Source: an uncultured Bacilli bacterium (GTDB taxonomy: Bacteria; Bacillota_I; Bacilli_A; RF39; UBA660). Taken from it: DNA of 64,000 nt. Below the pieces are notes generated by a model. The model had not been told where the DNA came from, did no database searches, and saw nothing but the letters and a program-made list of their open reading frames with translations. The DNA is taken from NCBI GenBank assembly GCA_934155645.1, contig CAKPHC010000007.1, forward strand, positions 9,475 to 73,474. The letters are read 5' to 3'. The position numbers and the translations under genes are program-made. Shown here in pieces: positions 237-32,517 of this stretch (position 1 is the first letter of the stretch; each line of letters starts with the position of its first letter).

Positions 237-947
237 CTAACTTAAAAATTGTATTATTATTGGGGATAAAATTAGTAATAGTATTAATGGTATAAAGAAT
301 ATTACTGATATTACTGATACCTTTAATGGAATCTTACTAATTTTTGCTTTAGCATTTAATATTTGTTTATCCCTTATATAATCTATTTGATTATACATGG
401 TATCTATAATACTATTACCAAAGATATTTGATTGTGAAATATTTAAGATAATATTATTAATAGTATCTGATGGTATTCTTAGTTTTAAATTTTCTAATGC
501 TTCATTAAGACTTTTACCATATTTTACTTCTCTTAGTGCTTGCCTGAATTCATAAGATAATTCAGAATCAATACTGTTAGAAGTTATTTCTAATGCTGTT
601 TTTAAATTACGCCCAGTCTCTAATGATAATGTTAAAACTTCGAAAAAATACATTGCATCATTATCTAATTTTTCACTTCTTGCAGCAACTTTTTTATCTA
701 TTACTATTTTAGGTAAAACATTAAAATAAATAATTGATATTAAAGGTGCGGTAATATATCCCAATTTAGATATATATAATATCATAAAAAATATTAATAT
801 GGTAGTTAAAAATCTAATATTTAAGAAAATTACTGCATTATATGTATCTTTATACCCTAATAAATCTATTTTCTTTTGATATTTATTGATTGTTTCGGTA
901 CTGTATATTTTATATGCTAAGTTAAGATTTTTACTATTTCTTTTCAT
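237..947 (-). CDS. tadC: Tad/Flp pilus assembly membrane protein TadC-like (T2SS-F domain)
   Basis: 236 aa polytopic membrane protein with a GspF-like cytoplasmic domain. Last gene of the tadZ-tadA-tadB-tadC order and overlaps tadB by the ATGA start/stop. Confidence 0.7.
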
Positions 948-1963
948 TACATCATCACCTTAACTTTCATTACTCGTTTGATTACTATTATGTATAGGAT
1001 ATAGATAAGTATTATTATGAACAATATCATTATACCTATAGGATTAGTAAATAATGGGGTAAAATAATTAGGATTTAGAATAAATATTCCTAAGAAAAGT
1101 AATACTGGAATAAATACTAGTATTTGGAATATTGCTTTCGCTGATGCGGTTAATGCGCCTAGTTCTTCTTGTAGTTTTTTTCTAGTAAATGAATTACGCT
1201 CTACTGAAGCAAAAACTTGAACTATGTTACCACCTGTTTTATTTAAAACATTTAATGATGTAGTTATATATCTTGCTTCTTTCGTATCTATTCTTTTAGT
1301 AAATCTTTCGAATACAGTTTCCATATTCAATCCAAAAGATAAGTCGATGTACATTTTTTTAAATTCTTCACTGATAGGTCCATCTAATTCATTAGATACC
1401 ATATATATTGCTTGCATAATACTAAGACCAGATTTAAAGGAGTTGTTCATAATAATGATTGCCTTTAACATATCTTTCTCTATTTGTCTTTTGCGCATTT
1501 TTGTTTTAGATATTAATAATAAATCCGGAATATAGAACCCAATTAAGAAAGTTGTTACTAGTTGTAAAGATGTAATGTTTTTATATTGAAATATATTGGA
1601 TATAATAATTAGAATCATCATAGCAAATCCTGCTAATACTTTGGTTGAAATATAGTCCATTGCATCTTCTCTAATAATCTTAGTGTTATCACAATATTTT
1701 TCATATTTTTTGCTATAATCGTTAAAGATTTTCAGTTTATATAAGAGTTTAGATACTCTTTTTTTAATTCTATTATAAATTTTATGCACTTTATCAAATA
1801 AAGATAATTCTTCGTCTTTAATAACGTTTACAGCATATTTACTAAATCTTTTTTCTAATCTAGTTGCTCTATTTAATCTAATTAACCATAATACTACACC
1901 AAATAGTATTATAATCATTGTTATTTGTAGAATAAATAAATTCATATTGTAACCATTTGGCAT
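947..1963 (-). CDS. tadB: Tad/Flp pilus assembly membrane protein TadB-like (T2SS-F domain)
   Basis: 338 aa with an N-terminal TM helix, a central soluble domain and C-terminal TM helices typical of the T2SSF family. Lies between tadA and tadC. Confidence 0.7.
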   Translation of the reverse strand: MPNGYNMNLFILQITMIIILFGVVLWLIRLNRATRLEKRFSKYAVNVIKDEELSLFDKVHKIYNRIKKRVSKLLYKLKIFNDYSKKYEKYCDNTKIIREDAMDYISTKVLAGFAMMILIIISNIFQYKNITSLQLVTTFLIGFYIPDLLLISKTKMRKRQIEKDMLKAIIIMNNSFKSGLSIMQAIYMVSNELDGPISEEFKKMYIDLSFGLNMETVFERFTKRIDTKEARYITTSLNVLNKTGGNIVQVFASVERNSFTRKKLQEELGALTASAKAIFQILVFIPVLLFLGIFILNPNYFTPLFTNPIGIMILFIIILIYILYIIVIKRVMKVKVMM

Positions 1964-1974
1964 AATATTTCCTC

Positions 1975-3360
1975 CTAATCTTTTTTCTTTTTAGATTTTT
2001 GTTCTTTTTCTATAGCTTGGAAGATGTCATCTACTGAATGAACTCCCCTACTTACAATTTTCTTATATACACTTGGAATATAATTATAAAGAATAAATTC
2101 ACCATTTACTTCGCCTTTATCCGTTAATCCGTTTTGTTGGAAAGCAAAGATATCTTTTAAAATGATATTTTCACCATCAAATCCAGTTATTTCTGAGATT
2201 GATGTTACTTTACGGCGACCATCGCTCAATCTTTCGATATTTACTACTATATCTAAGGCTTTTTCAATATATTCACGTACTGCTTTTAAAGGAATATCTA
2301 TTCCACTCATTAAAATCATTGTTTCTAATCGATTTAGAGCATCGCTTGCAGAATTAGCATGTAGTGTAGTAAGTGAACCATCATGACCTGTGTTCATAGC
2401 TTGTAACATATCAAATGCTTCTTCACCACGAACTTCTCCTACTATAATACGGTCTGGTCTCATACGTAATGAGTTTCTTACAAGGTCTCTTATTGTTACT
2501 TCACCTTCACGTTCATAGTTAACATTTCTTGTTTCTAGTGAAATTACGTGAGTTTGTTTTAATCTTAATTCTACAGCATCTTCTATTGTTATAATACGTT
2601 CATCAGGATTAATAAAATTTGATAAAACATTTAATAGTGTTGTCTTACCAGAACCAGTTCCACCACACACTACCATGTTTAATTTAGCTTCAACACATGC
2701 ATCTAGAAATCTAGCCATATATGGAGTTAATGTACCATTACCAATTAAAGCTTCAATATTACTCATACTCTCTTTGAATTTACGAATTGTCATAACTGGA
2801 CCTTTAACTGATAAAGGTGGAATAATTGCATTGATTCTTGAACCATCTGGTAGGTGTGAGTCAACCATTGGATTAGTTGAATCTATAGTTCTACCTAGTG
2901 GTTGAACAATTCTTTGAATAGTTCTAATTATATGGTCATTATTGATAAATGAAACAGAATCATCTCTAATTAATTGACCATCTACTTCTATATATATTTC
3001 ATTTGGTCCGTTTACCATTATTTCAGTAACGTTTTTATCTTCCAATAATTCGGTAATTGGTCCATATCCATTAATTTCGTTTTCTATTAAGTTGAAGATG
3101 TGATTTCTTTCTACATTTGTTAAGTCATATCCTTCAGTAATTCTATCTATTTCTTCATTAATATATTGAGTTAAAACTTTTTCATCAGGTATTTGGTTAT
3201 CTATTAATTCTTGAATTATTGTATTTCTAAAGCGGTCAAGTAAATCTTTATCTTTAAAAATATCATAATCGTTAGTTATTTCTTTGCTATATTCTTTTTC
3301 GTTTTCATTTTTTTCTATTTCAAATTCTTCTAGCCAACTATTTTTCTTCATTTGCTTCAT
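1975..3360 (-). CDS. tadA: CpaF/TadA-type secretion ATPase (VirB11-like)
   Basis: 461 aa with Walker [14 protein letters not shown] and Walker B/Asp box motifs. Has the [10 protein letters not shown] and [14 protein letters not shown] motifs characteristic of the CpaF/TadA family. Confidence 0.85.
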
Positions 3361-4132
3361 CCCCTTTATAATCTTTTAATAGATTAAGTACAAAATTAGA
3401 AAGTTTAGCTGCCTCTTTAGCATTGTCTTTTAATACTTTTTCACATGCTTCTAGAAGGTTGCCATTTACAACGTATTTATCTAATCCCCTAATATAAAAT
3501 CTTTTTGGTATTGTATAGTTTATTTTGCTTTTTATAATACTTTCAATATCATAACTAGAATAGTAACCACGACCTTCATTAATTGCACTATTTAGTACTA
3601 GGACTAGGTTATCTACGTCCATATTTTTACATATTGAAATAAAGTTTTTAGTATTTTTTATATCAAATGAATCGTTTGTGAAAATATCTAAAATTACTTT
3701 GGAACACTCAAAAGCAACCATGTTTGTAACGCTTAGAATATGATTAGTATCTATTAGAATAACATCATATTTGTGAGAAAAACTTCTTAAAATTACTTCT
3801 AGATATTTACGGTCTATTTTAGATGCTTGTCTAGGATCTTTTGGAGAAGTAATTATATCAATGTATTCATCATATTTAATAACATAGTTTTCTTTAGAAT
3901 CTCCTTTGTAACGGTTGTTTGCAACATCATCACATAGATTGTATATACTTCCTTTAACATCAAGATTTAACGCAAAGGCAATATCGCCATTATATAAGTC
4001 TAAATCCATTATTAATACTCTTTTTTGAGCCTTTTTTAGAATAGCAGCAAGTTGTAAAACAGTTAAAGTTTTACCAACTCCACCTTTCATGGAAGTTACT
4101 GTTATTATTTTCCCTTTTTTTATTTTTGGCAT
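3338..4132 (-). CDS. ParA/MinD-type ATPase, TadZ/CpaE-like pilus localisation protein
   Basis: 264 aa with deviant Walker A SMKGGVGKT. Sits immediately upstream of tadA and overlaps it, as in tad loci. Confidence 0.7.
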   Translation of the reverse strand: MPKIKKGKIITVTSMKGGVGKTLTVLQLAAILKKAQKRVLIMDLDLYNGDIAFALNLDVKGSIYNLCDDVANNRYKGDSKENYVIKYDEYIDIITSPKDPRQASKIDRKYLEVILRSFSHKYDVILIDTNHILSVTNMVAFECSKVILDIFTNDSFDIKNTKNFISICKNMDVDNLVLVLNSAINEGRGYYSSYDIESIIKSKINYTIPKRFYIRGLDKYVVNGNLLEACEKVLKDNAKEAAKLSNFVLNLLKDYKGDEANEEK

Positions 4133-4147
4133 ATTTTCACATCCTCA

Positions 4148-4513
4148 TTATTGATATATTGGATTATCGTTATTTATTTTAAATGTTCTTTTAGAAGTAA
4201 TTGTATAGTTATTTCTACCAGTTACATTTCCAAAATAACTTGAAACTTCTTTTTTTAAGTTAATTTGTACTTCTTCAGCACTTACTAATATAAATTCCAC
4301 TTCAATGTCTTTATCATTTTTATTTATATAATCTTTTATTTCATCAACACTCATATTTCTTATTGCAGCATCTTTTATTACTAAATCATTTATTTGATTT
4401 AATTTATTTTTGTTATATGCAAGATAAGTGTTATCAATTATGTATACAGCACCTAGTAATAAAATTGGAATTATTAGAACAAATAAGATTAATACTTGAC
4501 CTTTATTATTCAT
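4148..4513 (-). CDS. TadE-like pseudopilin
   Basis: 121 aa. Short basic leader MNNKGQ followed by a hydrophobic helix VLILFVLIIPILLLGAVYIID, resembling the TadE N-terminal domain. Overlaps the next TadE-like gene. Confidence 0.5.
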   Translation of the reverse strand: MNNKGQVLILFVLIIPILLLGAVYIIDNTYLAYNKNKLNQINDLVIKDAAIRNMSVDEIKDYINKNDKDIEVEFILVSAEEVQINLKKEVSSYFGNVTGRNNYTITSKRTFKINNDNPIYQ

Positions 4514-4859
4514 ACTTAATCACCCTACTAGTGGATACTTTATATGGTGATGATAATATCAAGTTAAGTCCAGGTGTAATTATATCTATTTTTCTTGATA
4601 AAGTCACTGTCATGTATCCGTTTTCAGCATTACTTAGTGTTACTTCAATATTAGTTTTAGTATTTTGATTTACAGTTTTATTAATAGCATCGTAATCAAT
4701 TGAATCTCTATCAATGTCATTTATATAGCCTAAAGCTGTTTCTAATTCGTTTTTATTTACAAATATTCTACCAAAATCTATTACTGCAAATAAAAGCATA
4801 ATAAGAACTGGTAAAACTAAAATGAATTCAACTAATGCTTGACCTTTTTTATTGTTCAC
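4506..4859 (-). CDS. TadE-like pseudopilin with G/XXXXEF prepilin-peptidase motif
   Basis: 117 aa. MNNKKGQALVEFILVLPVLIMLLFAVIDFGRIF matches the TadE/TadF N-terminal domain and the Flp-type cleavage motif (G, four residues, E, F). Confidence 0.65.
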   Translation of the reverse strand: MNNKKGQALVEFILVLPVLIMLLFAVIDFGRIFVNKNELETALGYINDIDRDSIDYDAINKTVNQNTKTNIEVTLSNAENGYMTVTLSRKIDIITPGLNLILSSPYKVSTSRVIKYE

Positions 4860-4938
4860 TCTACCACCCCTATTATAGATTAATTATAGCACAGCACAAA
4901 AAAAAATAAAACTATAAAGTCTTATTTTTTTAATTCTA

Positions 4939-5517
4939 TTATGCTCCTGCTTGTGCATTGAAGAATTGTTGATAGTTAGCAGTAACTACAATGTTTTTAG
5001 TTAATTCATCAGGTTGTTCACCAGTTGTATCATCATAAGTAGCAACTAGTGTAATAGTTTCTCTACCTGTTGAAGCCGCTAATTTTGCTCTGTTAGTTAA
5101 ATCATCATCTGGAGATGGTGTTAATGTAAATGTAATTGGAGCTTCTCCTGTTTCAACTGCTGTGATTGATTTTAATACAGCATCTAGAGTTCCAGTGTTT
5201 TTAACTCCAATTGTACATGTTACTTGGTCTCCAGGTGTTTCTAATGAAACAGCTAATGTTGCAGTTGTACCAGATATTGCAATACCACTTCCATCTGAAC
5301 ATTTAGAAACAGTAGTATCTTGATCAAATTCTACCTTCCAAGTTGAACCAATTGTAGTAGTACCGTTTATTGTTAAGTTAGTTGTAAATGCAGCAAATGC
5401 TACAGCCATAACAATAACAACTGTACATAACATAACAATTAATATGCCTTTGTCCTTCATAATATCCTCCTTTATTATTACAAAATTATTGTAACATATT
5501 TTAGTAGTGTAATACAA
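4939..5517 (-). CDS. Secreted TasA/camelysin-like protein, paralog 1 of 5
   Basis: 192 aa. Signal peptide ending AFA|AF, then conserved LTINGTTTIGSTWKV and the (L/F)xxPGDxxxCxxxxxNxG(S/T)LDAxL motif, comparable to the B. subtilis TasA LKPGDKLTKDFQFENNGSLAIK segment. AGGAGG RBS. Confidence 0.6.
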   Translation of the reverse strand: MYYTTKICYNNFVIIKEDIMKDKGILIVMLCTVVIVMAVAFAAFTTNLTINGTTTIGSTWKVEFDQDTTVSKCSDGSGIAISGTTATLAVSLETPGDQVTCTIGVKNTGTLDAVLKSITAVETGEAPITFTLTPSPDDDLTNRAKLAASTGRETITLVATYDDTTGEQPDELTKNIVVTANYQQFFNAQAGA

Positions 5518-5539
5518 TATTTTTTGTAAAAAAAAGATA

Positions 5540-5575
5540 TAGGAAACTATATCTTTAATCCAAATTATTAGTTAA
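5540..5575 (-). terminator. Rho-independent terminator of paralog 2
   Basis: On the minus strand: AAAGATATAG-TTTC-CTATATCTTT stem-loop followed by TTTTTT. Confidence 0.6.
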
Positions 5576-5579
5576 AATC

Positions 5580-6149
5580 TTAACCTAATTTTTGTTCATA
5601 ACCGATAGTTACAGTTACAGTTTTTGTTTTAGTAGCTTCTGTTGCTGAACCAGTAGCATCAGCATCATAAGCAGCGTCAATTTTGTAAGTTTGAGTTTTA
5701 CCAGCTGCTAATGTATCACCTGTAGCTATGCCTGATAAGTTGTATTTAATTAAGTCAGCAGCTGTTACATCAAGTGAATTATCATCAGCAGTAACAGTTT
5801 TAGAAGCTCCTGAACCATCTTTTACAACTGTATCAATGCTTTTAACTTTAGCATCTAATGAACCAGTGTTAGAAATAGTTACATCACAGTGTCCTGTGTC
5901 TCCTGGTTGATTGAAAGTGAAGTCGAATTGAGCAGTTGTTGCTGTAAAGCTTTTAGTAACTGCTGCTGCTTGTCCACCTTCTACTGCAGTTGCATTGCAA
6001 TCGATTGCAGTAATAGCAACGTTCCATGTAGAACTGATTGTTGCTGTACCATTAATTGTTAATGTTGTTTGGAATGCTGCATAAGCTACTGCCATAACGC
6101 AAACTACTGCACATAGCATTCCGATTATAAGATTTTTGCTATCTTTCAT
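5580..6149 (-). CDS. Secreted TasA/camelysin-like protein, paralog 2
   Basis: 189 aa. MKDSKNLIIGMLCAVVCVMAVAYA|AFQTTLTINGTATISSTWNV ... FTFNQPGDTGHCDVTISNTGSLDAKVK. Has its own rho-independent terminator. Confidence 0.6.
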   Translation of the reverse strand: MKDSKNLIIGMLCAVVCVMAVAYAAFQTTLTINGTATISSTWNVAITAIDCNATAVEGGQAAAVTKSFTATTAQFDFTFNQPGDTGHCDVTISNTGSLDAKVKSIDTVVKDGSGASKTVTADDNSLDVTAADLIKYNLSGIATGDTLAAGKTQTYKIDAAYDADATGSATEATKTKTVTVTIGYEQKLG

Positions 6150-6185
6150 TTCTAATTTCCTCCCTTGTGTTTATCACACTATAAT

Positions 6186-6731
6186 TTATTTAATTTTTTG
6201 AGTAGCAACTGATGTGATTGATAATTTTGCTGTTTTAGCTGCTGCTGCTGGATCTTCAGTTATAGTACTCTTATATGTTCCTTGAACAGTGATTTCATGA
6301 GTAGCATTTTTACCAGCGTTTGCTAATAACTCTGTAGTTCCATTATTAGTAGCTCCTGTAACAACAAAGTCAATTGCATCTGTTCCATCAGCTCCAGTAA
6401 TTGTATGAGTTAATAATACGTCTACAGTACCACAGTTTTCATATACTACTTGGCAAGTAGCTGTGTCTCCAGGTTGAGTGAATCCCATAGTGATTGTAGC
6501 ATCTAATGCATTACCAGCAACTGATGCTTCAGCAGTAACTGAACCAGCAGCTCCACCTGAAACTGGTGTTTTAGTTGGGCAAGTTGCCTCCTTAATTCTT
6601 ACACACCATTCTGATGCGATTGTTGATGTACCATTAATTGTTAATGTTGTTGCGAATGCAGCGTAAGCTACAGCCATAACACAAACAACTGCACATAACA
6701 TACCAATTACTAAATTCTTACTATCCTTCAT
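6186..6731 (-). CDS. Secreted TasA/camelysin-like protein, paralog 3
   Basis: 181 aa with the same N-terminal module. Contains FTQPGDTATCQVVYENCGTVDVLL. Confidence 0.6.
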   Translation of the reverse strand: MKDSKNLVIGMLCAVVCVMAVAYAAFATTLTINGTSTIASEWCVRIKEATCPTKTPVSGGAAGSVTAEASVAGNALDATITMGFTQPGDTATCQVVYENCGTVDVLLTHTITGADGTDAIDFVVTGATNNGTTELLANAGKNATHEITVQGTYKSTITEDPAAAAKTAKLSITSVATQKIK

Positions 6732-6825
6732 TTTGTTTTTCTCCTTCCTTATCTTATAGATTGATTATAGCAAACATTATTTTAAAAGACAATACTTAAA
6801 ATATAAATTTGCATTTTTTTACACA

Positions 6826-6862
6826 AAATTTTCACAAAAAAACACGACCACTGTAAAGTCAT
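6826..6862 (-). terminator. Rho-independent terminator of paralog 4
   Basis: On the minus strand: AAACATGAC ... GTCGTGTTT stem with one G-U pair, followed by a T-run. Confidence 0.45.
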
Positions 6863-6874
6863 GTTTTTAAACAT

Positions 6875-7405
6875 TTAATTAAAGTTTTGAGTATAATTAG
6901 CAGTTACTTTTAATTCCTTAGTTTTATCGCTATCAAGAGGTTGTGATGTAATACTACTATCATATTTACCAGTTACAACTGCTGTATGTGTACCAGTTGT
7001 TTTTGATAAAACAGCGTTTTCAGTAAGACCTGTTACAGAAAGTCTTATTGGTCCTTCTTCATCTATTCCAGTTATTATTAATTCACTTAATTTTGCATCT
7101 ATATTTCCACAGTTTTCAAATATAATTGTACATACTGCTTGGTCTCCTGGTTGGGTAAACTCCATAGAAACTGTCGCTGTATTATTTGACACTTTACTAG
7201 CAGTAGCAGTAACTGATTCAGCACTTCCTCCGCTTACTGGAGTTGTAACACAAGTAGGATTATCTTTAATTCTTACACACCAATCTGATGTGATTGTTGC
7301 TGTACCGTTTATCTTTAAATTTGTTGCAAATGCTGCATAACCTACAGCCATGATTGCTATTAATGCACACAACAATCCAACTAGTAAACCTTTTTTATCT
7401 TTCAT
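6875..7405 (-). CDS. Secreted TasA/camelysin-like protein, paralog 4
   Basis: 176 aa with the same N-terminal module. Contains FTQPGDQAVCTIIFENCGNIDAKL. Own terminator downstream. Confidence 0.6.
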   Translation of the reverse strand: MKDKKGLLVGLLCALIAIMAVGYAAFATNLKINGTATITSDWCVRIKDNPTCVTTPVSGGSAESVTATASKVSNNTATVSMEFTQPGDQAVCTIIFENCGNIDAKLSELIITGIDEEGPIRLSVTGLTENAVLSKTTGTHTAVVTGKYDSSITSQPLDSDKTKELKVTANYTQNFN

Positions 7406-17628: not shown

Positions 17629-18909
17629 TTATTTTTCACTATTTAATAACCAGTCGATAACATTGATTTTAGTTATTCCGTCGTAATCAGCATCTAAGTC
17701 CATATCTAAAGTTAATAAATATTTTGGATAATGGTCTCCTGTTTTTTGTAATGATTTCAATTCTCTTTCAAGAACTTTTTCATCTCTTACTGATAATGCA
17801 ACTTGGTAATATCTTAATCCGTCTCTATTTTCAGCTACAAAGTCTACTTCTAAGTCATCTACTTTACCAACATATACTTTGTATCCTCGTCTTAGTAATT
17901 CTAAATACACTATATTTTCTAATACATGCCCCATATCACTATCAGCTTTTTTACCTAAAAGATAACTTCTAAGTCCTGTATCAACCGCATAGTATTTATA
18001 ATCTCTTACTAGAAGATTTTTACCTTTAACATCAAATCTTTCAGCTTTATATATCAAGAAACTTTCTAAAAATGATGTTAGGTAATTTTCTACAGTATGA
18101 TTACTTGTAGACATACCTTTACTTGTTAAAGTATCACTTATTTTTTTAGTGGATACTGGGCTTCCAATACTATCAAAAATAAATTTTAAAATATTTTCTA
18201 ACAGCATTTTATCGGTTATATTATTTCTTGCCATTATATCTTTATAAACAATAGTAGAAAATATTCCGTCTAGGTATTTGTCAACACCATCGGCATTAGT
18301 TTTTAATATATTTATATTTCCAGGCATACCACCATTTCTCATATATTCTAAGAATAATTTTTGGTAATTATCACTATCAAAAGCAGTGACATATTCTTTA
18401 AATGATAGTGGTAACATTTTTATTTCTATATATCTACCTGAAAGTAAAGTCGCAAGTTCACCAGATAATAAATATGCATTAGAACCAGTAATATATACAT
18501 CGACATTTTTCTTTATATATAAACTATCAACAGCTTTCTGAAAATTAGGAACGTTTTGAACTTCATCTAAAAAAACATAATATTGTTTATCAGAATCTAT
18601 TTTAGCATTTATATAATCATAAAGTTCTTTATATCCAGTAAATTCATAATCAACATCTTCTAAATTTATATGAATTATTTGGTCATCACTTATATTATCT
18701 TTTTTTAGATAATTTATGAATAATTCAAATAAAGTGGATTTTCCACATCTTCTTATTCCTGTGATTACTTTGATTAAATCTTTATCTCTCCATTTTTTTA
18801 ATTCTTCTAAATATTCAGGTCTTTCTATCATATCAATCACCTCTAGATAATTATATATCAGCTTTAACTCTAAGTCAAGTTTTGGAAATATTTTTCCAAA
18901 ACTTGACAA
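17629..18909 (-). CDS. AAA+ ATPase of the DUF4143/AAA_14 family
   Basis: Walker A GIRRCGKST and Walker B VFLDEVQ, with a C-terminal DUF4143-like region. Confidence 0.7.
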   Translation of the reverse strand: MSSFGKIFPKLDLELKLIYNYLEVIDMIERPEYLEELKKWRDKDLIKVITGIRRCGKSTLFELFINYLKKDNISDDQIIHINLEDVDYEFTGYKELYDYINAKIDSDKQYYVFLDEVQNVPNFQKAVDSLYIKKNVDVYITGSNAYLLSGELATLLSGRYIEIKMLPLSFKEYVTAFDSDNYQKLFLEYMRNGGMPGNINILKTNADGVDKYLDGIFSTIVYKDIMARNNITDKMLLENILKFIFDSIGSPVSTKKISDTLTSKGMSTSNHTVENYLTSFLESFLIYKAERFDVKGKNLLVRDYKYYAVDTGLRSYLLGKKADSDMGHVLENIVYLELLRRGYKVYVGKVDDLEVDFVAENRDGLRYYQVALSVRDEKVLERELKSLQKTGDHYPKYLLTLDMDLDADYDGITKINVIDWLLNSEK

Positions 18910-20333: not shown

Positions 20334-20627
20334 TATATCACCACTATATTATAAGTAATTAACCTATAGAGGTGATTTATAGTTAATTATAATTGTAAAC
20401 AAAATCTTTTAATTCTTCACTAATCATTACTCTATATTTAGTTCTTTTATCTTATTCATTAGAAAAAATTATAAAAAAAACAAACGCCCTTTCGATAATA
20501 TTTACCTACTAACACGCTTGTTCTCAGTTACTTCTATTTAGCATTACTGCTAGGAAAATACTTGTTTCTTCAAGAATCGTTTTACCATAACTTACGTTAT
20601 AAATTCATCCACAATCTGAAGAAATTC

Positions 20628-20782: not shown

Positions 20783-20808
20783 CCAGTTGCAAAGGGTTTT
20801 GCAACTGG
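20783..20808. other. Perfect 11-bp inverted repeat (CCAGTTGCAAA-GGGT-TTTGCAACTGG) between VR and TR
   Basis: Read directly from the sequence. Lies just 3' of the target gene stop and has no T-run, so it is not a classic terminator. Confidence 0.5.
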
Positions 20809-20833: not shown

Positions 20834-22477
20834 TTAGTTAACTTTTATAACGTACGGATTATTAAGAGTTCCATCACCACTTGTAATTTCTGCAGTAGAT
20901 TTCAGATTGATGGTCGGGCGCACGCCATTCCTGATGTCCACGTAGTCGATGTCCACGCGACCCCCGGCCACGTTCCACACGATAGCGTCAGAGGCAGAGC
21001 GGTAGGGCGACATTGTCCAGGAAGGACTTCCATTTACTAGATAATAACTTTTATTCTCTATACCATATACTCCACCCGCATATGCTACTTCATCTGCTGT
21101 TATTAACCCTATTGGATATGTTAATGCTTTATTACCTTTTGTTGAAGTTGCTGTTGTATATAAATCATTACTTTGTGGACATTTAAATTGTGGTGTTTTA
21201 TTTAAATAAAGTCTATAATCAGCACCATAAATAGTAAGACCATCAACGCCATCACCACCACTTCTATCTCCACAAAATCCTATATCTACTAAATATGATG
21301 AATAAGTACTTAAATTTGCACTATACCATGTATCTATTGTTGTTTTTATTGCACTTGAATTGGTATTTTTATGAGTTTCAGCATATGTCGATGCACCTGT
21401 TGTTCCATACATATACCCTACATATGTAGCATCATTAGAGTTAGTATTAAACGCACTATTACCTATTGAATCTTGTTTGATTAATCTTATACTTCCATCT
21501 TCATTTATTCTTACTATTCGCCACAAAATTTCTTTTTTTCCCCATGTAGCGTATTCATTTGTATATGTTGTGCCTTCAAATTGAGAACACTTTTCACCAT
21601 TTACATCTCCTGAAATAATTGCACCTACACCATTTCTAGCAAGACAAACCTTTGATTCCTTACATTGACTCTCATTTGTCGTTGGATATTCACCTGCACC
21701 ATTAACATAGACAACCTCATTTCCATTATAAGTACATACATTTACTTTTCCAAATGATACATAGTTATTCTCCACTGCTCCTCTAAAGTAATATGTTGTT
21801 TTATTATCTTCGGTATTTGTACTTGTATAATATAGTCCTTTTCCATTTGTATCACTACTTATTTGTGAAAAATCTATATTTGTATCAGGCTGTGCTGTAT
21901 TATCTTTTAATATTGCTGCTGATAATCTTGTTGTTTTTATTATAGGGTTTTCTGGTGTCACGGTTTCGCTCATATCTTGTACATAATTAATATCAATGGT
22001 TAAAGTATTATCTGTTAAGGCTGGTTGAGTTGTTACATTAGAATCATAACTAATTGTTACGTTAAATGTAGAGGTTTGAGATTTTGCTAATTTGTCTCCT
22101 TTTTTTATTCCAGTTATTTCAAATTTAATAGCATCGCTTCCAGTTTCACTTGCTGTTATATCATTTATTATTGCATCTAATGTTCCTTGATTTGCTACTG
22201 TTATTTTGTAAACTATCTTATCCCCTGGACTTATTAAGTCAACATCAAAAGTAGCACTTGTACCTTCTGCTGTTGGAGCACTTGTTATTGTTACTCCACT
22301 TGTTTTAGATACTTCCTCAATTTTTGTAAATACTACTTTCCAAGTTGATGTAATATTTGCTGTACCATTAATAGTTAGATTCGTTGCAAAAGCTGCATAT
22401 CCTATTGCCATTACACATATTAAACAGCACATTGTTATCATAATTATTTTCTTACTCTTCATATACTTTTCTTCCAT
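20834..22477 (-). CDS. Secreted TasA-like N-domain protein with C-terminal DUF1566/Lcl-like domain; candidate DGR target (paralog 5)
   Basis: N-terminal MKSKKIIMITMCCLICVMAIGYA|AFATNLTINGTANITSTWKV plus LISPGDKIVYKITVANQGTLDAII, as in the four cluster paralogs. C-terminus has YPIGLITADEVAYAGG ... SWTMSPYRSASDAIVWNVAGGRVDIDYVDIRNGVRP, typical of DUF1566-type DGR variable domains. An alternative start at the second Met (22462) is possible. Confidence 0.7.
   Translation of the reverse strand: MEEKYMKSKKIIMITMCCLICVMAIGYAAFATNLTINGTANITSTWKVVFTKIEEVSKTSGVTITSAPTAEGTSATFDVDLISPGDKIVYKITVANQGTLDAIINDITASETGSDAIKFEITGIKKGDKLAKSQTSTFNVTISYDSNVTTQPALTDNTLTIDINYVQDMSETVTPENPIIKTTRLSAAILKDNTAQPDTNIDFSQISSDTNGKGLYYTSTNTEDNKTTYYFRGAVENNYVSFGKVNVCTYNGNEVVYVNGAGEYPTTNESQCKESKVCLARNGVGAIISGDVNGEKCSQFEGTTYTNEYATWGKKEILWRIVRINEDGSIRLIKQDSIGNSAFNTNSNDATYVGYMYGTTGASTYAETHKNTNSSAIKTTIDTWYSANLSTYSSYLVDIGFCGDRSGGDGVDGLTIYGADYRLYLNKTPQFKCPQSNDLYTTATSTKGNKALTYPIGLITADEVAYAGGVYGIENKSYYLVNGSPSWTMSPYRSASDAIVWNVAGGRVDIDYVDIRNGVRPTINLKSTAEITSGDGTLNNPYVIKVN
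20881..21010 (-). other. Candidate DGR variable repeat (VR) at the 3' end of the CDS
   Basis: About 58% GC in a ~27% GC genome. Aligns to the downstream TR with differences almost only at TR adenines. Confidence 0.6.
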
Positions 22478-22509
22478 TTCCTTCTCCGTATTTTATTTTA
22501 TCTATACTC

Positions 22510-22539
22510 ATTATACCCCCCCCCCTAGGAGTTTTGCAA
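22510..22539 (-). promoter_or_regulatory. Sigma-A-type promoter of the DGR-target gene with a G10 (plus-strand C10) homopolymer in the spacer
   Basis: On the minus strand: TTGCAA (22534-22539), then the 18-nt spacer aactcctaGGGGGGGGGG, then TATAAT (22510-22515). The RBS GGAGAAGGA and ATG lie about 25 nt downstream. Confidence 0.6.
22516..22525. repeat. C10 homopolymeric tract
   Basis: The only long G/C homopolymer in the window. It sits inside the promoter spacer. Confidence 0.9.
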
Positions 22540-22630
22540 GCATAAATTTTTTTCACTATTATATATAACCCATTATAATCTATAATTATGGAGAATTTTG
22601 TTGGTAAATTTTGCCATAAAAAAAACAATA

Positions 22631-30053: not shown

Positions 30054-31502
30054 TTAATATTGTTTTCCAAAGTAAATTTTAGTAACAGCTTTATCGCCAC
30101 AGCAAACGCAAGGTCCATCTGGCGCTTCATCATCAATTATACAACGTGATTTGATTCCTAATTCTTCTTTGATTTTATCTTCGCAGGCTTGGTTACCACA
30201 CCAATTAACTTTGATAAATCCATTTTTATTAGTTGCAATATCTTTCATTTCTTCATAATTATTTGCTGTATAAATCATACTGTTACGTCTTGATAATGCT
30301 TTATCATACATATCTTTTTGAATTGTCACTAGTAATTCTTGTACTTTAGGTAGTACTTCAGTAGTATTAACTTGGATTTTTTCTAAAGTATCACGTCTTA
30401 CAAGTGTTACTACATTAGTTTCTAAATCTCTTTTACCTATTTCTATTCTTATTGGGTATCCTTTTACCTCAGCTTCTGCAAATCTAAATCCTGGTGTTTT
30501 ATCAGTATTATCTACTTTAACAGTTATATCGTTTTCTTTTAATTGATTTGTAATATTGTTAGTTAATTCTTCTATTCTAGAATCATTTCCGATAGGTATA
30601 ACAATTACTTGAGTTGGTGCGATATTAGGAGGTAATACTAGTCCTCTATCATCACCATGAGTCATTATTATGGCTCCTATCATCCTAGTAGAGCATCCCC
30701 ATGATGTTTGATATGGTGTTTCTAGTTTATTTTCTTTGTTTAAGAATTGAATATTAAATGCTTTAGCAAAATGGTTTCCAAAGTAATGACTTGTACCATT
30801 TTGTAGTGCTACTCCATTATACATCATCGCTTCAAGTGAGTATGTTTCTTCAGCACCTGCAAATTTTTCTTTATCAGTTTTTCTACCTACTATTACTGGA
30901 AGTGCTAGATAGTTTCTTTGAAAATTTTCATATACTCCTAGCATTTTTAGTGTTTCTTCTTTAGCCTCTTTGCTAGTTGCATGCATTGTATGACCTTCTT
31001 GCCATAGTATTTCTCTACTTCTTAAGAAAGGTCTAGTTTCTTTTTCCCATCTAACAATAGTGCACCATTGGTTATAAAGTTTAGGTAAATCACGATAAGA
31101 TTTAATTATTTTACTATAATGTTCACAAAATAAAACTTCACTAGTCGGTCTAACACACATTTTTTCATCTAGTTTTGCACTTCCGCCTTGAGTAACCCAT
31201 GCTACTTCTGGAGCAAAACCTTCTACGTGCTCTTTTTCAATATTTAATAGACTTTCTGGTATAAACATAGGCATTTGTACATTTTCATGTCCTGTATCTT
31301 TAAACATTTTGTCTAATACTTTTTGGATGTTCTCCCATATAGCATATCCGTATGGACGAATAATCATACTTCCTTTAACTGATGAGTAATCTACTAAATC
31401 AGCTTTTTTGCATACATCTGTATACCATTTTCCAAAGTCTTCATCACGACCAGTTATTTCTTTTACTTGTTTGTCATTCATAATAAATCTTCCCTTCAAC
31501 AT
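30054..31502 (-). CDS. proS: Proline--tRNA ligase (archaeal/eukaryotic-like short type)
   Basis: Class II aaRS motifs and a C-terminal zinc-binding CxxC...CxxC. Probable start at MNDKQVKE. Confidence 0.85.
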   Translation of the reverse strand: MLKGRFIMNDKQVKEITGRDEDFGKWYTDVCKKADLVDYSSVKGSMIIRPYGYAIWENIQKVLDKMFKDTGHENVQMPMFIPESLLNIEKEHVEGFAPEVAWVTQGGSAKLDEKMCVRPTSEVLFCEHYSKIIKSYRDLPKLYNQWCTIVRWEKETRPFLRSREILWQEGHTMHATSKEAKEETLKMLGVYENFQRNYLALPVIVGRKTDKEKFAGAEETYSLEAMMYNGVALQNGTSHYFGNHFAKAFNIQFLNKENKLETPYQTSWGCSTRMIGAIIMTHGDDRGLVLPPNIAPTQVIVIPIGNDSRIEELTNNITNQLKENDITVKVDNTDKTPGFRFAEAEVKGYPIRIEIGKRDLETNVVTLVRRDTLEKIQVNTTEVLPKVQELLVTIQKDMYDKALSRRNSMIYTANNYEEMKDIATNKNGFIKVNWCGNQACEDKIKEELGIKSRCIIDDEAPDGPCVCCGDKAVTKIYFGKQY

Positions 31503-31879: not shown

Positions 31880-32140
31880 TATGCAAGGAGTTTAACATTA
31901 ATTACAAAGAAGTATTTTTTGTAGAAGAAAAGAACTTTTATTGTAAAAGTCCTTTGCCTCATTTCTATAATTTTGCTACTATCTACTTTACTAGTATTGG
32001 TAATAGGAAAATAGACCCCTTTCATTTCTGATTAAGTGTCACCCTATATGAGACGACATTCAACGTAGCAAAGCTGAATGTTCCCTTTGTGTAAGCAAAG
32101 ACGATTGCTTACACATCAATAATAACATTGCCTATTTATA
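31880..32140 (+). repeat. Small-peptide cassette copy A (degenerate; peptide frame has no start codon)
   Basis: The frame ...KKRTFIVKVLCLISIILLLSTLLVLVIGK* is preceded by an in-frame TAG. It has the conserved terminator hairpin GACATTCAACG...CTGAATGTTCC plus a U-run, the second hairpin TGTAAGCAA/TTGCTTACA and the AATAACAT box. Confidence 0.55.
32055..32090 (+). terminator. Rho-independent terminator of cassette A
   Basis: Stem ACATTCA / TGAATGT followed by CCCTTTGTG. Confidence 0.5.
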
Positions 32141-32189
32141 TTGTCAAAATGAATTTAATAATTTTTATTAAAAAAATGTACTTGTTCGA

Positions 32190-32219
32190 TTGTTTTTATA
32201 AACACATCTATTATATAAT
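32190..32219 (+). promoter_or_regulatory. Promoter of cassette B
   Basis: TTGTTT, 18 nt, TATAAT. Conserved in position and sequence with cassette C. Confidence 0.5.
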
Positions 32220-32284
32220 TCTTTTTAGGAACATTTGGTTGTTGAGTGTCGTCCTCCAATCTTGATAAAGAAAGGAGGGATACA

Positions 32285-32377
32285 ATGAAGAAAAGAACTT
32301 TTATAATAAAAGTCCTTTGTCTTATTGCTATCATTTTATTACTCCTTACCTTATTGGTAATAGCAATAAAAATATAG
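32285..32377 (+). CDS. 30-aa hydrophobic peptide MKKRTFIIKVLCLIAIILLLLTLLVIAIKI (type I toxin-like)
   Basis: RBS AAAGGAGGG 5 nt upstream, a single TM helix after a KKR N-terminus, and a stem-loop immediately after the stop. Confidence 0.55.
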   Translation: MKKRTFIIKVLCLIAIILLLLTLLVIAIKI

Positions 32378-32417
32378 ACACTCTGTATTTGTAGAGTGTC
32401 TCCCCATCATAGAGGAT

Positions 32418-32456
32418 GACATTCAACGTGACAAAACTGAATGTTCCTCTTTTTTA
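32418..32456 (+). terminator. Rho-independent terminator of cassette B
   Basis: GACATTCAACG-loop-TGAATGTTC followed by TCTTTTTT. Confidence 0.6.
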
Positions 32457-32517
32457 TTATATGTAAGATTTCTTACTTACATACTAATAATAACATAAAT
32501 AATTATTCATGTCAAAA

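Follow-up and report, generated by a model that had tools for sequence, protein, structure and literature searches.

Most of the contingency loci known to vary through slippage in a homopolymer belong to pathogens, such as Neisseria, Haemophilus, Campylobacter, Helicobacter and the mycoplasmas, and a homopolymer becomes long enough to slip at about 8-9 nt or more. In Neisseria meningitidis, the -35/-10 spacer of the porA promoter contains a poly-G tract, and expression is high with 11 G's, 2.2-fold lower with 10 and 13-fold lower with 9 (PMC3639595). Phase variation through a poly-C promoter tract is described for the opc gene of the same species (Sarkari 1994). Insertions and deletions in the promoter spacer likewise switch vlp of Mycoplasma hyorhinis, maa2 of M. 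arthritidis and vmm of M. mycoides (PMC2268961). Proximity to a -10 box does not in itself make a homopolymer a switch: the T tract that adjoins the -10 box of the M. agalactiae vpma promoter is not one (PMC2268961).

The locus described here was found in a 64-kb stretch of DNA from an uncultured Bacilli bacterium of the human gut, hereafter the window. It resembles porA and opc in that a G/C homopolymer of about 9-13 nt separates the promoter boxes of a surface protein gene, both the boxes and the surface location being putative here. Unlike in those proteobacterial cases, the host is a low-GC Bacilli of the Gram-positive type and the tract belongs to a cassette that recurs in front of many paralogues in each genome. 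The resemblance to vlp, maa2 and vmm of the mycoplasmas lies in a Bacilli-related multigene surface family in which each gene has its own promoter, with a repeat in the spacer that is predicted here to be prone to slippage and to switch each gene independently; recombination among paralogues is a further likeness. It differs from vlp in that the repeat is poly-G rather than the poly-A or TA of mycoplasmas, in that the products are predicted to be secreted proteins with Ig-like and DUF6273-like regions rather than lipoproteins with repetitive C-termini, and in that some members are additionally DGR targets.

On the minus strand, from 22539 to 22477, the window reads TTGCAA, AACTCCTA, ten G's, TATAAT, 22 nt, GGAG and ATG. 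The spacer between TTGCAA and TATAAT is thus 18 nt, 10 of them G, and TATAAT lies 32 nt upstream of the ATG at 22477 (Table 1). Related promoters have AATCCCTA, AAACCGAT or AATTCCT in place of AACTCCTA. Judging from the sequence, transcription would start near 22502-22503. The first-pass annotation had reported a C10/G10 run inside the -35/-10 spacer and had called it the only long G/C homopolymer of this AT-rich window. Both statements are correct: the GC content of the window is 27.4 %, and one C6 at 29477 is the only other G/C run of 6 nt or more. From base composition, 64 kb would be expected to contain about 8e-4 C runs and about 1e-5 G runs of 10 nt or longer.

Table 1. Positions in the window of the predicted poly-G promoter, the gene behind it and the remnant of the DGR
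Feature	Position	Strand	Basis
-35-like hexamer TTGCAA	22534..22539	(-)	sequence, promoter pattern scan and paralogue comparison
Non-repeat part of spacer, AACTCCTA	22526..22533	(-)	read from sequence
G10 homopolymer (C10 on + strand), proposed slippage-prone repeat	22516..22525	(-)	sequence and homopolymer count
-10 hexamer TATAAT	22510..22515	(-)	sequence and promoter pattern scan
Predicted 5' UTR, with RBS GGAG at 22484-22487	22478..22509	(-)	read from sequence; UTR conserved in paralogues
Gene for predicted secreted/surface protein of 547 aa (ORF)	20834..22477	(-)	ORF, homologue search, structure model, domains of relatives
DGR variable region (VR), 3' end of 547-aa gene	20917..21008	(-)	95-nt match to TR
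GC-rich hairpin between stop codon and TR	20783..20808	(-)	sequence analysis
Template repeat (TR) of the DGR, rich in AAC, about 110 nt past the stop codon	20632..20726	(-)	match to VR
Deletion scar: first 9 avd codons (20433-20459) and last 11 RT codons (20386-20418)	20386..20459	(-)	alignment with L099

A generic sigma-70 pattern scan gave the poly-G site 10 of 12 matches. The same scan returned 56 sites from the window as compared with 46 +/- 7 from shuffled sequence, which is not above background, and the promoter assignment therefore needed independent support. This was provided by the conservation of the site across 869 kb of related loci, which indicates that it is not random; a chance promoter-like match at 22510-22539 was rejected on these grounds. 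The window scan revealed no convincing terminator between the 547-aa gene and the upstream ORF, so read-through could add expression that does not depend on the tract.

The related loci were obtained in two ways. A scan with one genome per species identified 79 loci encoding relatives of the 547-aa protein, in uncultured Bacilli MAGs from Hadza and Brazilian humans, rabbits and goats, and in 'Clostridium sp. CAG:710'; together with look-ups of exact proteins, the full set comprises 99 loci (869 kb), designated here by L numbers. Searching metagenomes at the DNA level with a promoter pattern that lets the tract vary contributed one extra locus, L005; the pattern was too strict for a population survey. 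Each genome encodes many paralogues, at least 12 of them on contigs of MAG CAKOWQ01.

G/C runs of 8 nt or more number 39 in the 99 loci. In every case the coding strand of a family gene carries the G's, and 38 of the runs directly abut a -10 box, which reads TATAAT, TATACT or TGTATACT. The exception, in L057 (3498-3509), is a G12 followed by sequence that does not resemble a promoter, a context that may be due to misassembly. After duplicates were collapsed, 38 distinct tract-bearing promoters were counted; the MAGs that contribute them represent at least 8 species, with humans, rabbits and goats as hosts. In 36 of the 38, a TTG hexamer (TTGCCA, TTGAAA or TTGCAA) precedes the tract at a distance of 7-8 nt, and it is at this hexamer that sequence similarity among paralogues begins. 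In several paralogues a hairpin followed by a T-run, i.e., a terminator, is located immediately upstream of the -35 box, which suggests that the cassette is an independent transcription unit.

Pure tracts among the distinct promoters are mostly 10 or 11 nt long (G10 in 12, G11 in 10, G12 in six and G13 in three). The spacers of the pure-tract promoters (n=29) measure 17 nt in one case, 18 nt in 12, 19 nt in 12, 20 nt in three and 21 nt in one. In about 8 more promoters of this design the tract is interrupted, once or twice, by single bases, e.g., GGGGAGGGGGGG, GGGGGTGGGGGG and GGGAGGAGGGG; these locked variants have spacers of 18-20 nt and keep 11-12 G-rich positions. Other family promoters lack the tract: three relatives retain only GGG before TATAAT, with spacers of 17-18 nt, and some 17 genes of the family show ordinary A/T-rich spacers, for the most part likewise of 17-18 nt. 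The conserved TTG and TATAAT boxes, together with the 17-18-nt spacing of the tract-less promoters, support the promoter assignment. Of the 29 pure-tract promoters, 16 have spacers of at least 19 nt, compared with 4 of the 19 that lack a tract (Fisher p = 0.035). About half of the tract-bearing copies are outside the normal spacing range. The maintenance of uninterrupted G10-13 tracts in genomes of 27 % GC, alongside copies that have become locked, is the sequence pattern that would be expected of contingency loci.

The same survey bears on a different reading, in which the G tract is a fixed cis-element, either the site of a family-specific regulator or an extended -10-like structure, whose length drifts neutrally without any programmed switching. 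The conservation of the position and composition of the tract across species is compatible with such an element, and so are the narrow clustering of lengths at 10-12, the G-rich positions preserved in the interrupted variants, the G10 that the window allele has in three samples, and the precedent of M. agalactiae vpma, where a T tract beside the -10 box has no role in switching (PMC2268961). Nevertheless, the tract-less family promoters, with their ordinary A/T-rich spacers of 17-18 nt, argue that the G's are not required for the promoter. The distance between the -35 and -10 boxes is, moreover, a strong determinant of the strength of sigma-70-type promoters, and any change in the length of the tract alters it. 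Uninterrupted runs of 10-13 G's in genomes of 27 % GC are also what selection for mutability predicts. We therefore consider a fixed cis-element to be rather unlikely, albeit the likeliest of the alternatives.

The first-pass annotation had anticipated that the length of the tract would differ among related assemblies. To compare the window locus between samples, we used contigs from independent samples that encode an identical upstream 285-aa protein. Across the loci compared in this manner, 22, 17 and 12 contigs carry identical neighbouring proteins, and the per-locus tract lengths come from the minority of these that were inspected. At the window locus, L001/L004 (which match the window exactly) have G10, as do L002 and L085; the tract of L003 is G13. 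L003 is a different, recombinant allele of the window gene, with changes that start in the 5' UTR, whereas the exact window allele has G10 in all three independent assemblies. Since G13 is found only in the recombinant allele, slippage at the window's own copy was not observed. A second locus, behind a DUF421 gene, has G10 in L086 and G11 in L005, with allelic differences in the UTR.

The clearest comparison is that of L096 and L097, which originate from different studies. The two are identical over the 4542 nt that precede the tract and the 211 nt that follow it, and the tract itself is G11 in L096 and G10 in L097; a third sample of the same locus, L098, has G10. These three contigs carry tandem family genes from the same species group, with an interrupted tract at about 2940-3000 and a pure tract at 4543-4553. 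The interrupted tract, GGGGGAGGGGG, lies 1.5 kb upstream of the pure one and is invariant in L096, L097 and L098, so that the tandem pair constitutes a natural control for tract instability. The identical flanks and the invariant GGGGGAGGGGG demonstrate that the length polymorphism between samples is confined to the pure tract. Thus, the anticipated heterogeneity exists across the family (G10 to G13) and between L096 and L097, but not among the three assemblies of the window allele.

Poly-G artefacts do exist in two-colour Illumina chemistry, and in Illumina assemblies the consensus length of G runs of 10 nt or more can carry errors. That the tract is itself an artefact of sequencing or assembly might be suspected from contig L089, which begins inside a G tract (1-10) and hence points to an assembly break there. 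However, long contigs contain the tract in their interior, and the same promoter boxes surround it in assemblies that derive from independent studies and hosts (Hadza, MERR22, Brazilian, rabbit, goat and a JGI metagenome); its orientation and position are always the same. In view of this reproducibility an artefact was ruled out, and we assign it a negligible probability. The G tracts and the repeated cassettes do appear to break or scramble short-read assemblies of these genomes, as in L089 and L057.

Recombination appears to have affected the genes behind these promoters as well. The window and L085 differ only by a patch of 11 substitutions, at 21208-21256. One and the same 573-aa gene, with the ORFs downstream of it, is found in L002 (5012-7859) and in L097 (4591-7438) behind different upstream genes. 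These comparisons suggest that the bodies of the family genes are mosaic, either through gene conversion among paralogues or, in part, because the assemblies are chimeric. It might then be argued that the main function of the G tract is to promote recombination or gene conversion among the paralogues, loosely as the G4 upstream of gonococcal pilE does, the promoter spacing being incidental. The breakpoints of the mosaics do fall shortly downstream of the tract; L096 and L097, for instance, diverge 211 nt after it, L003 and L002 have different gene bodies behind an identical upstream gene, and the shared 573-aa gene of L002 and L097 could be read in the same manner. A single run of 10-13 G's is not a canonical intramolecular G4 motif, however, and transcription, which is predicted to start downstream of the tract, would not open it. 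Homology for recombination is already available from the conserved promoter, UTR and signal-peptide region, and some of the mosaics could be assembly chimeras at repeats. For these reasons a recombination element seems to us improbable.

Our preferred interpretation is therefore that of a promoter-spacer switch: the G10 tract is likely to be a hypermutable repeat in the spacer of a sigma-A-type promoter, operating by slipped-strand mispairing as in porA, opc and vlp. Slippage during replication would add G's to the tract or remove them, and each change in length would alter the distance and the angle between the -35 and -10 boxes, and with them transcription, upwards or downwards. The altered level would be heritable yet reversible, i.e., a phase or 'volume' switch. 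Because many paralogues in each genome share the promoter cassette, each cell could express a subset of the family, and this subset would change over time. The 17-18-nt spacers of the tract-less relatives suggest that G10, with its 18-nt spacer, is probably the expressing state; G11 to G13 (19-21 nt) would then be reduced or off. Most tracts, however, give spacers of 18-19 nt and not the canonical 17, and those of the locked variants are 18-20 nt, so the promoter may tolerate changes in length. GGG-TATAAT partly resembles an extended -10 box, which may confer such tolerance, and a G-rich spacer may also be structurally atypical.

A slipped-strand switch at this promoter was what the first-pass annotation had proposed from the window alone. 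The proposal is strengthened by the conserved position of the tract in about 38 promoters, by lengths that range from G10 to G13, by the G11/G10 pair in L096 and L097, by the locked variants and by the spacing of the tract-less promoters. The argument rests on comparison, and falls short of proof.

The first-pass annotation had further suggested that this switch is stacked on DGR hypervariation of the same gene. The VR/TR pair of the window is, to judge from its sequence, genuine: 15 of its 22 mismatches are at TR adenines, with most of the non-A differences at the 3' boundary; the VR and the TR differ in length by one codon, and the VR region has 63 % GC in a genome of 27 %. This is the arrangement known from the DGRs of Bordetella phage BPP-1 (Mtd), Treponema (TvpA) and Legionella (LdtA), in which a C-terminal VR is accompanied by a nearby TR and the two differ almost only at TR adenines. 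The hairpin between the stop codon and the TR could be either a terminator-like element or the target-side hairpin of a DGR.

Unlike in those DGRs, avd and the RT gene are deleted in the window and the VR is apparently static. A tblastn search of the 64-kb window with the RTs of L034 and L099 detected only an 11-codon C-terminal remnant, the window contains no YxDD-bearing ORF other than a Ddl-like one, and of avd only the first 9 codons are found. An RT encoded within the window was rejected on the basis of the tblastn result and inspection of ORF motifs. A search for homologues of the DGR RT returned many relatives, mostly on short contigs, none of them tied to the genome of the window. Three samples, represented by the window/L001, L085 and L086, share one and the same VR sequence.

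What was lost can be seen in L099, a locus of a related organism that is syntenic with the window (about 79-85 % DNA identity), with the same acyltransferase and 282-aa genes upstream and murE downstream. In L099 the order is G11 promoter, target, VR, TR, bAvd, RT and murE; all 17 mismatches between its TR and VR are at A, and its RT has the motifs IGNMTSQ and YMDD and a MutS_I-like C-terminus. The intact cassette at this syntenic locus explains why the window has a TR and a VR without avd and RT. The segment of L099 that encodes avd and RT (5118-6867) has no counterpart in the window, and both of its flanks align at 82-85 %. The sequence comparison thus indicates that avd and RT were lost from the window locus by a 1.75-kb deletion, the scar of which lies between the TR and murE. 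The DGR copy of the window is accordingly a relic and probably frozen, unless the orphan TR is served by an RT encoded elsewhere in the genome.

Other loci of the clade retain the complete system. L034, a paralogous locus, has a complete cassette behind a G10 promoter with a 17-nt spacer, and another is present in a rabbit MAG; avd is intact in L034, L090 and L099. As in described DGRs, related loci encode bAvd together with an RT that has IGNxxSQ and YMDD motifs. A TR that is 88 % identical is found behind a paralogue in L023. In L068 (7200-7968), avd lies behind a family target and a TR and is truncated by a Mutator-family IS transposase, which represents a second, independent way in which a DGR of this clade has been disabled.

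The RTs of the clade's DGRs also carry a C-terminal region like MutS domain I (PF01624), at 8176-9705 in L034, 5403-6938 in L099 and 2196-3728 in L090. Such an architecture is unusual among DGR RTs and sets these enzymes apart from the three systems named above, as does a target gene behind a proposed homopolymer promoter switch. A gene for an AAA_14/DUF4143 ATPase was noted after murE in the window (17629-18909, minus strand) and just downstream of the DGR cassette in L090 (3852-5105), which is from a rabbit MAG.

Some family members, the ancestor of the window locus among them, are DGR targets in addition to carrying the proposed switch. The sequences of L099 and L034, where both are intact, indicate that the proposed phase switch and a DGR on one gene are a real combination in this clade. 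As for the window, the suggestion of stacked hypervariation is borne out only in part: its VR/TR pair is real, but the genes that would act on it are gone.

In the protein encoded behind the promoter, a basic N-terminus leads into a hydrophobic segment (MKSKKIIMITMCCLICVMAIGYAAF...), a putative signal or anchor, and we infer that it is secreted or probably surface-exposed. Searches of Pfam and NCBIfam with the 547-aa protein of the window gave no significant match, and its 3828 homologues at E <=1e-3 are nearly all from gut metagenomes. DUF6273 is present in 5 of 24 relatives, and CBM_X2 in some. In the AlphaFold model (mean pLDDT 65.7), an N-terminal helix precedes a beta-sandwich at residues ~47-166, and the C-terminal half is poorly resolved. 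Foldseek comparison of the model with the PDB gave generic Ig-like matches only (TM ~0.1), and a profile search of PDB sequences gave nothing. The protein is therefore predicted, from the model and its relatives, to contain an Ig-like beta-sandwich, with a C-terminal region that in relatives is DUF6273-like. The C-type-lectin or FGE-like fold that would be expected of a DGR target was not confirmed by the AlphaFold model, Foldseek or the PDB profile search.

At its 5' end on the forward strand, the window contains a Tad-like secretion or pilus locus (237-4132, minus strand) with two T2SSF genes, one T2SSE ATPase gene and a CpaE-like ATPase gene. Four small paralogous genes, of 176-192 aa, adjoin it, the whole region being 237-7405 (minus strand). 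The first ~45 residues of the 547-aa protein are paralogous to these small genes (4939-7405), and the shared N-termini may link the variable protein family to a Tad-like system for export or assembly. Elsewhere in the window, two tandem non-coding units of ~363 nt, 73-81 % identical to each other and lacking an Rfam match, are located at 31924-32517, upstream of the gene at 30054-31502; the Rfam scan of the 64-kb window returned one tRNA and nothing else.

A broader picture can be drawn, to which we give slightly less than even chances. One secreted family, maybe associated with a Tad-like pilus, would be diversified in three layers: independent poly-G switches on at least 10 paralogues per genome, giving combinatorial ON/OFF expression; mosaic recombination among these paralogues; and, in some copies, DGR hypermutation of the C-terminal binding domain. 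Such a family would be the equivalent, in commensals, of Mycoplasma vlp and Neisseria opa/pil and, to our knowledge, would include the first DGR target under an SSR phase switch. A search of open-access text, which was not exhaustive, revealed no description of homopolymer promoter switching of a DGR target or of this gene family. The device itself is familiar; the lineage and the gene family are new, and the coupling to a DGR is notable.

The finding would place the same device that is known from pathogens in uncultured but abundant Bacilli that live as commensals in the gut of humans, rabbits and goats, where a promoter cassette carries it throughout a gene family. If it is correct, this clade bet-hedges its repertoire of surface proteins or adhesins, and the lengths of the G tracts would offer a simple way of telling from metagenomes which paralogues are probably expressed. 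It would also mean that a single gene can be subject both to switching of its expression and to targeted hypermutation.
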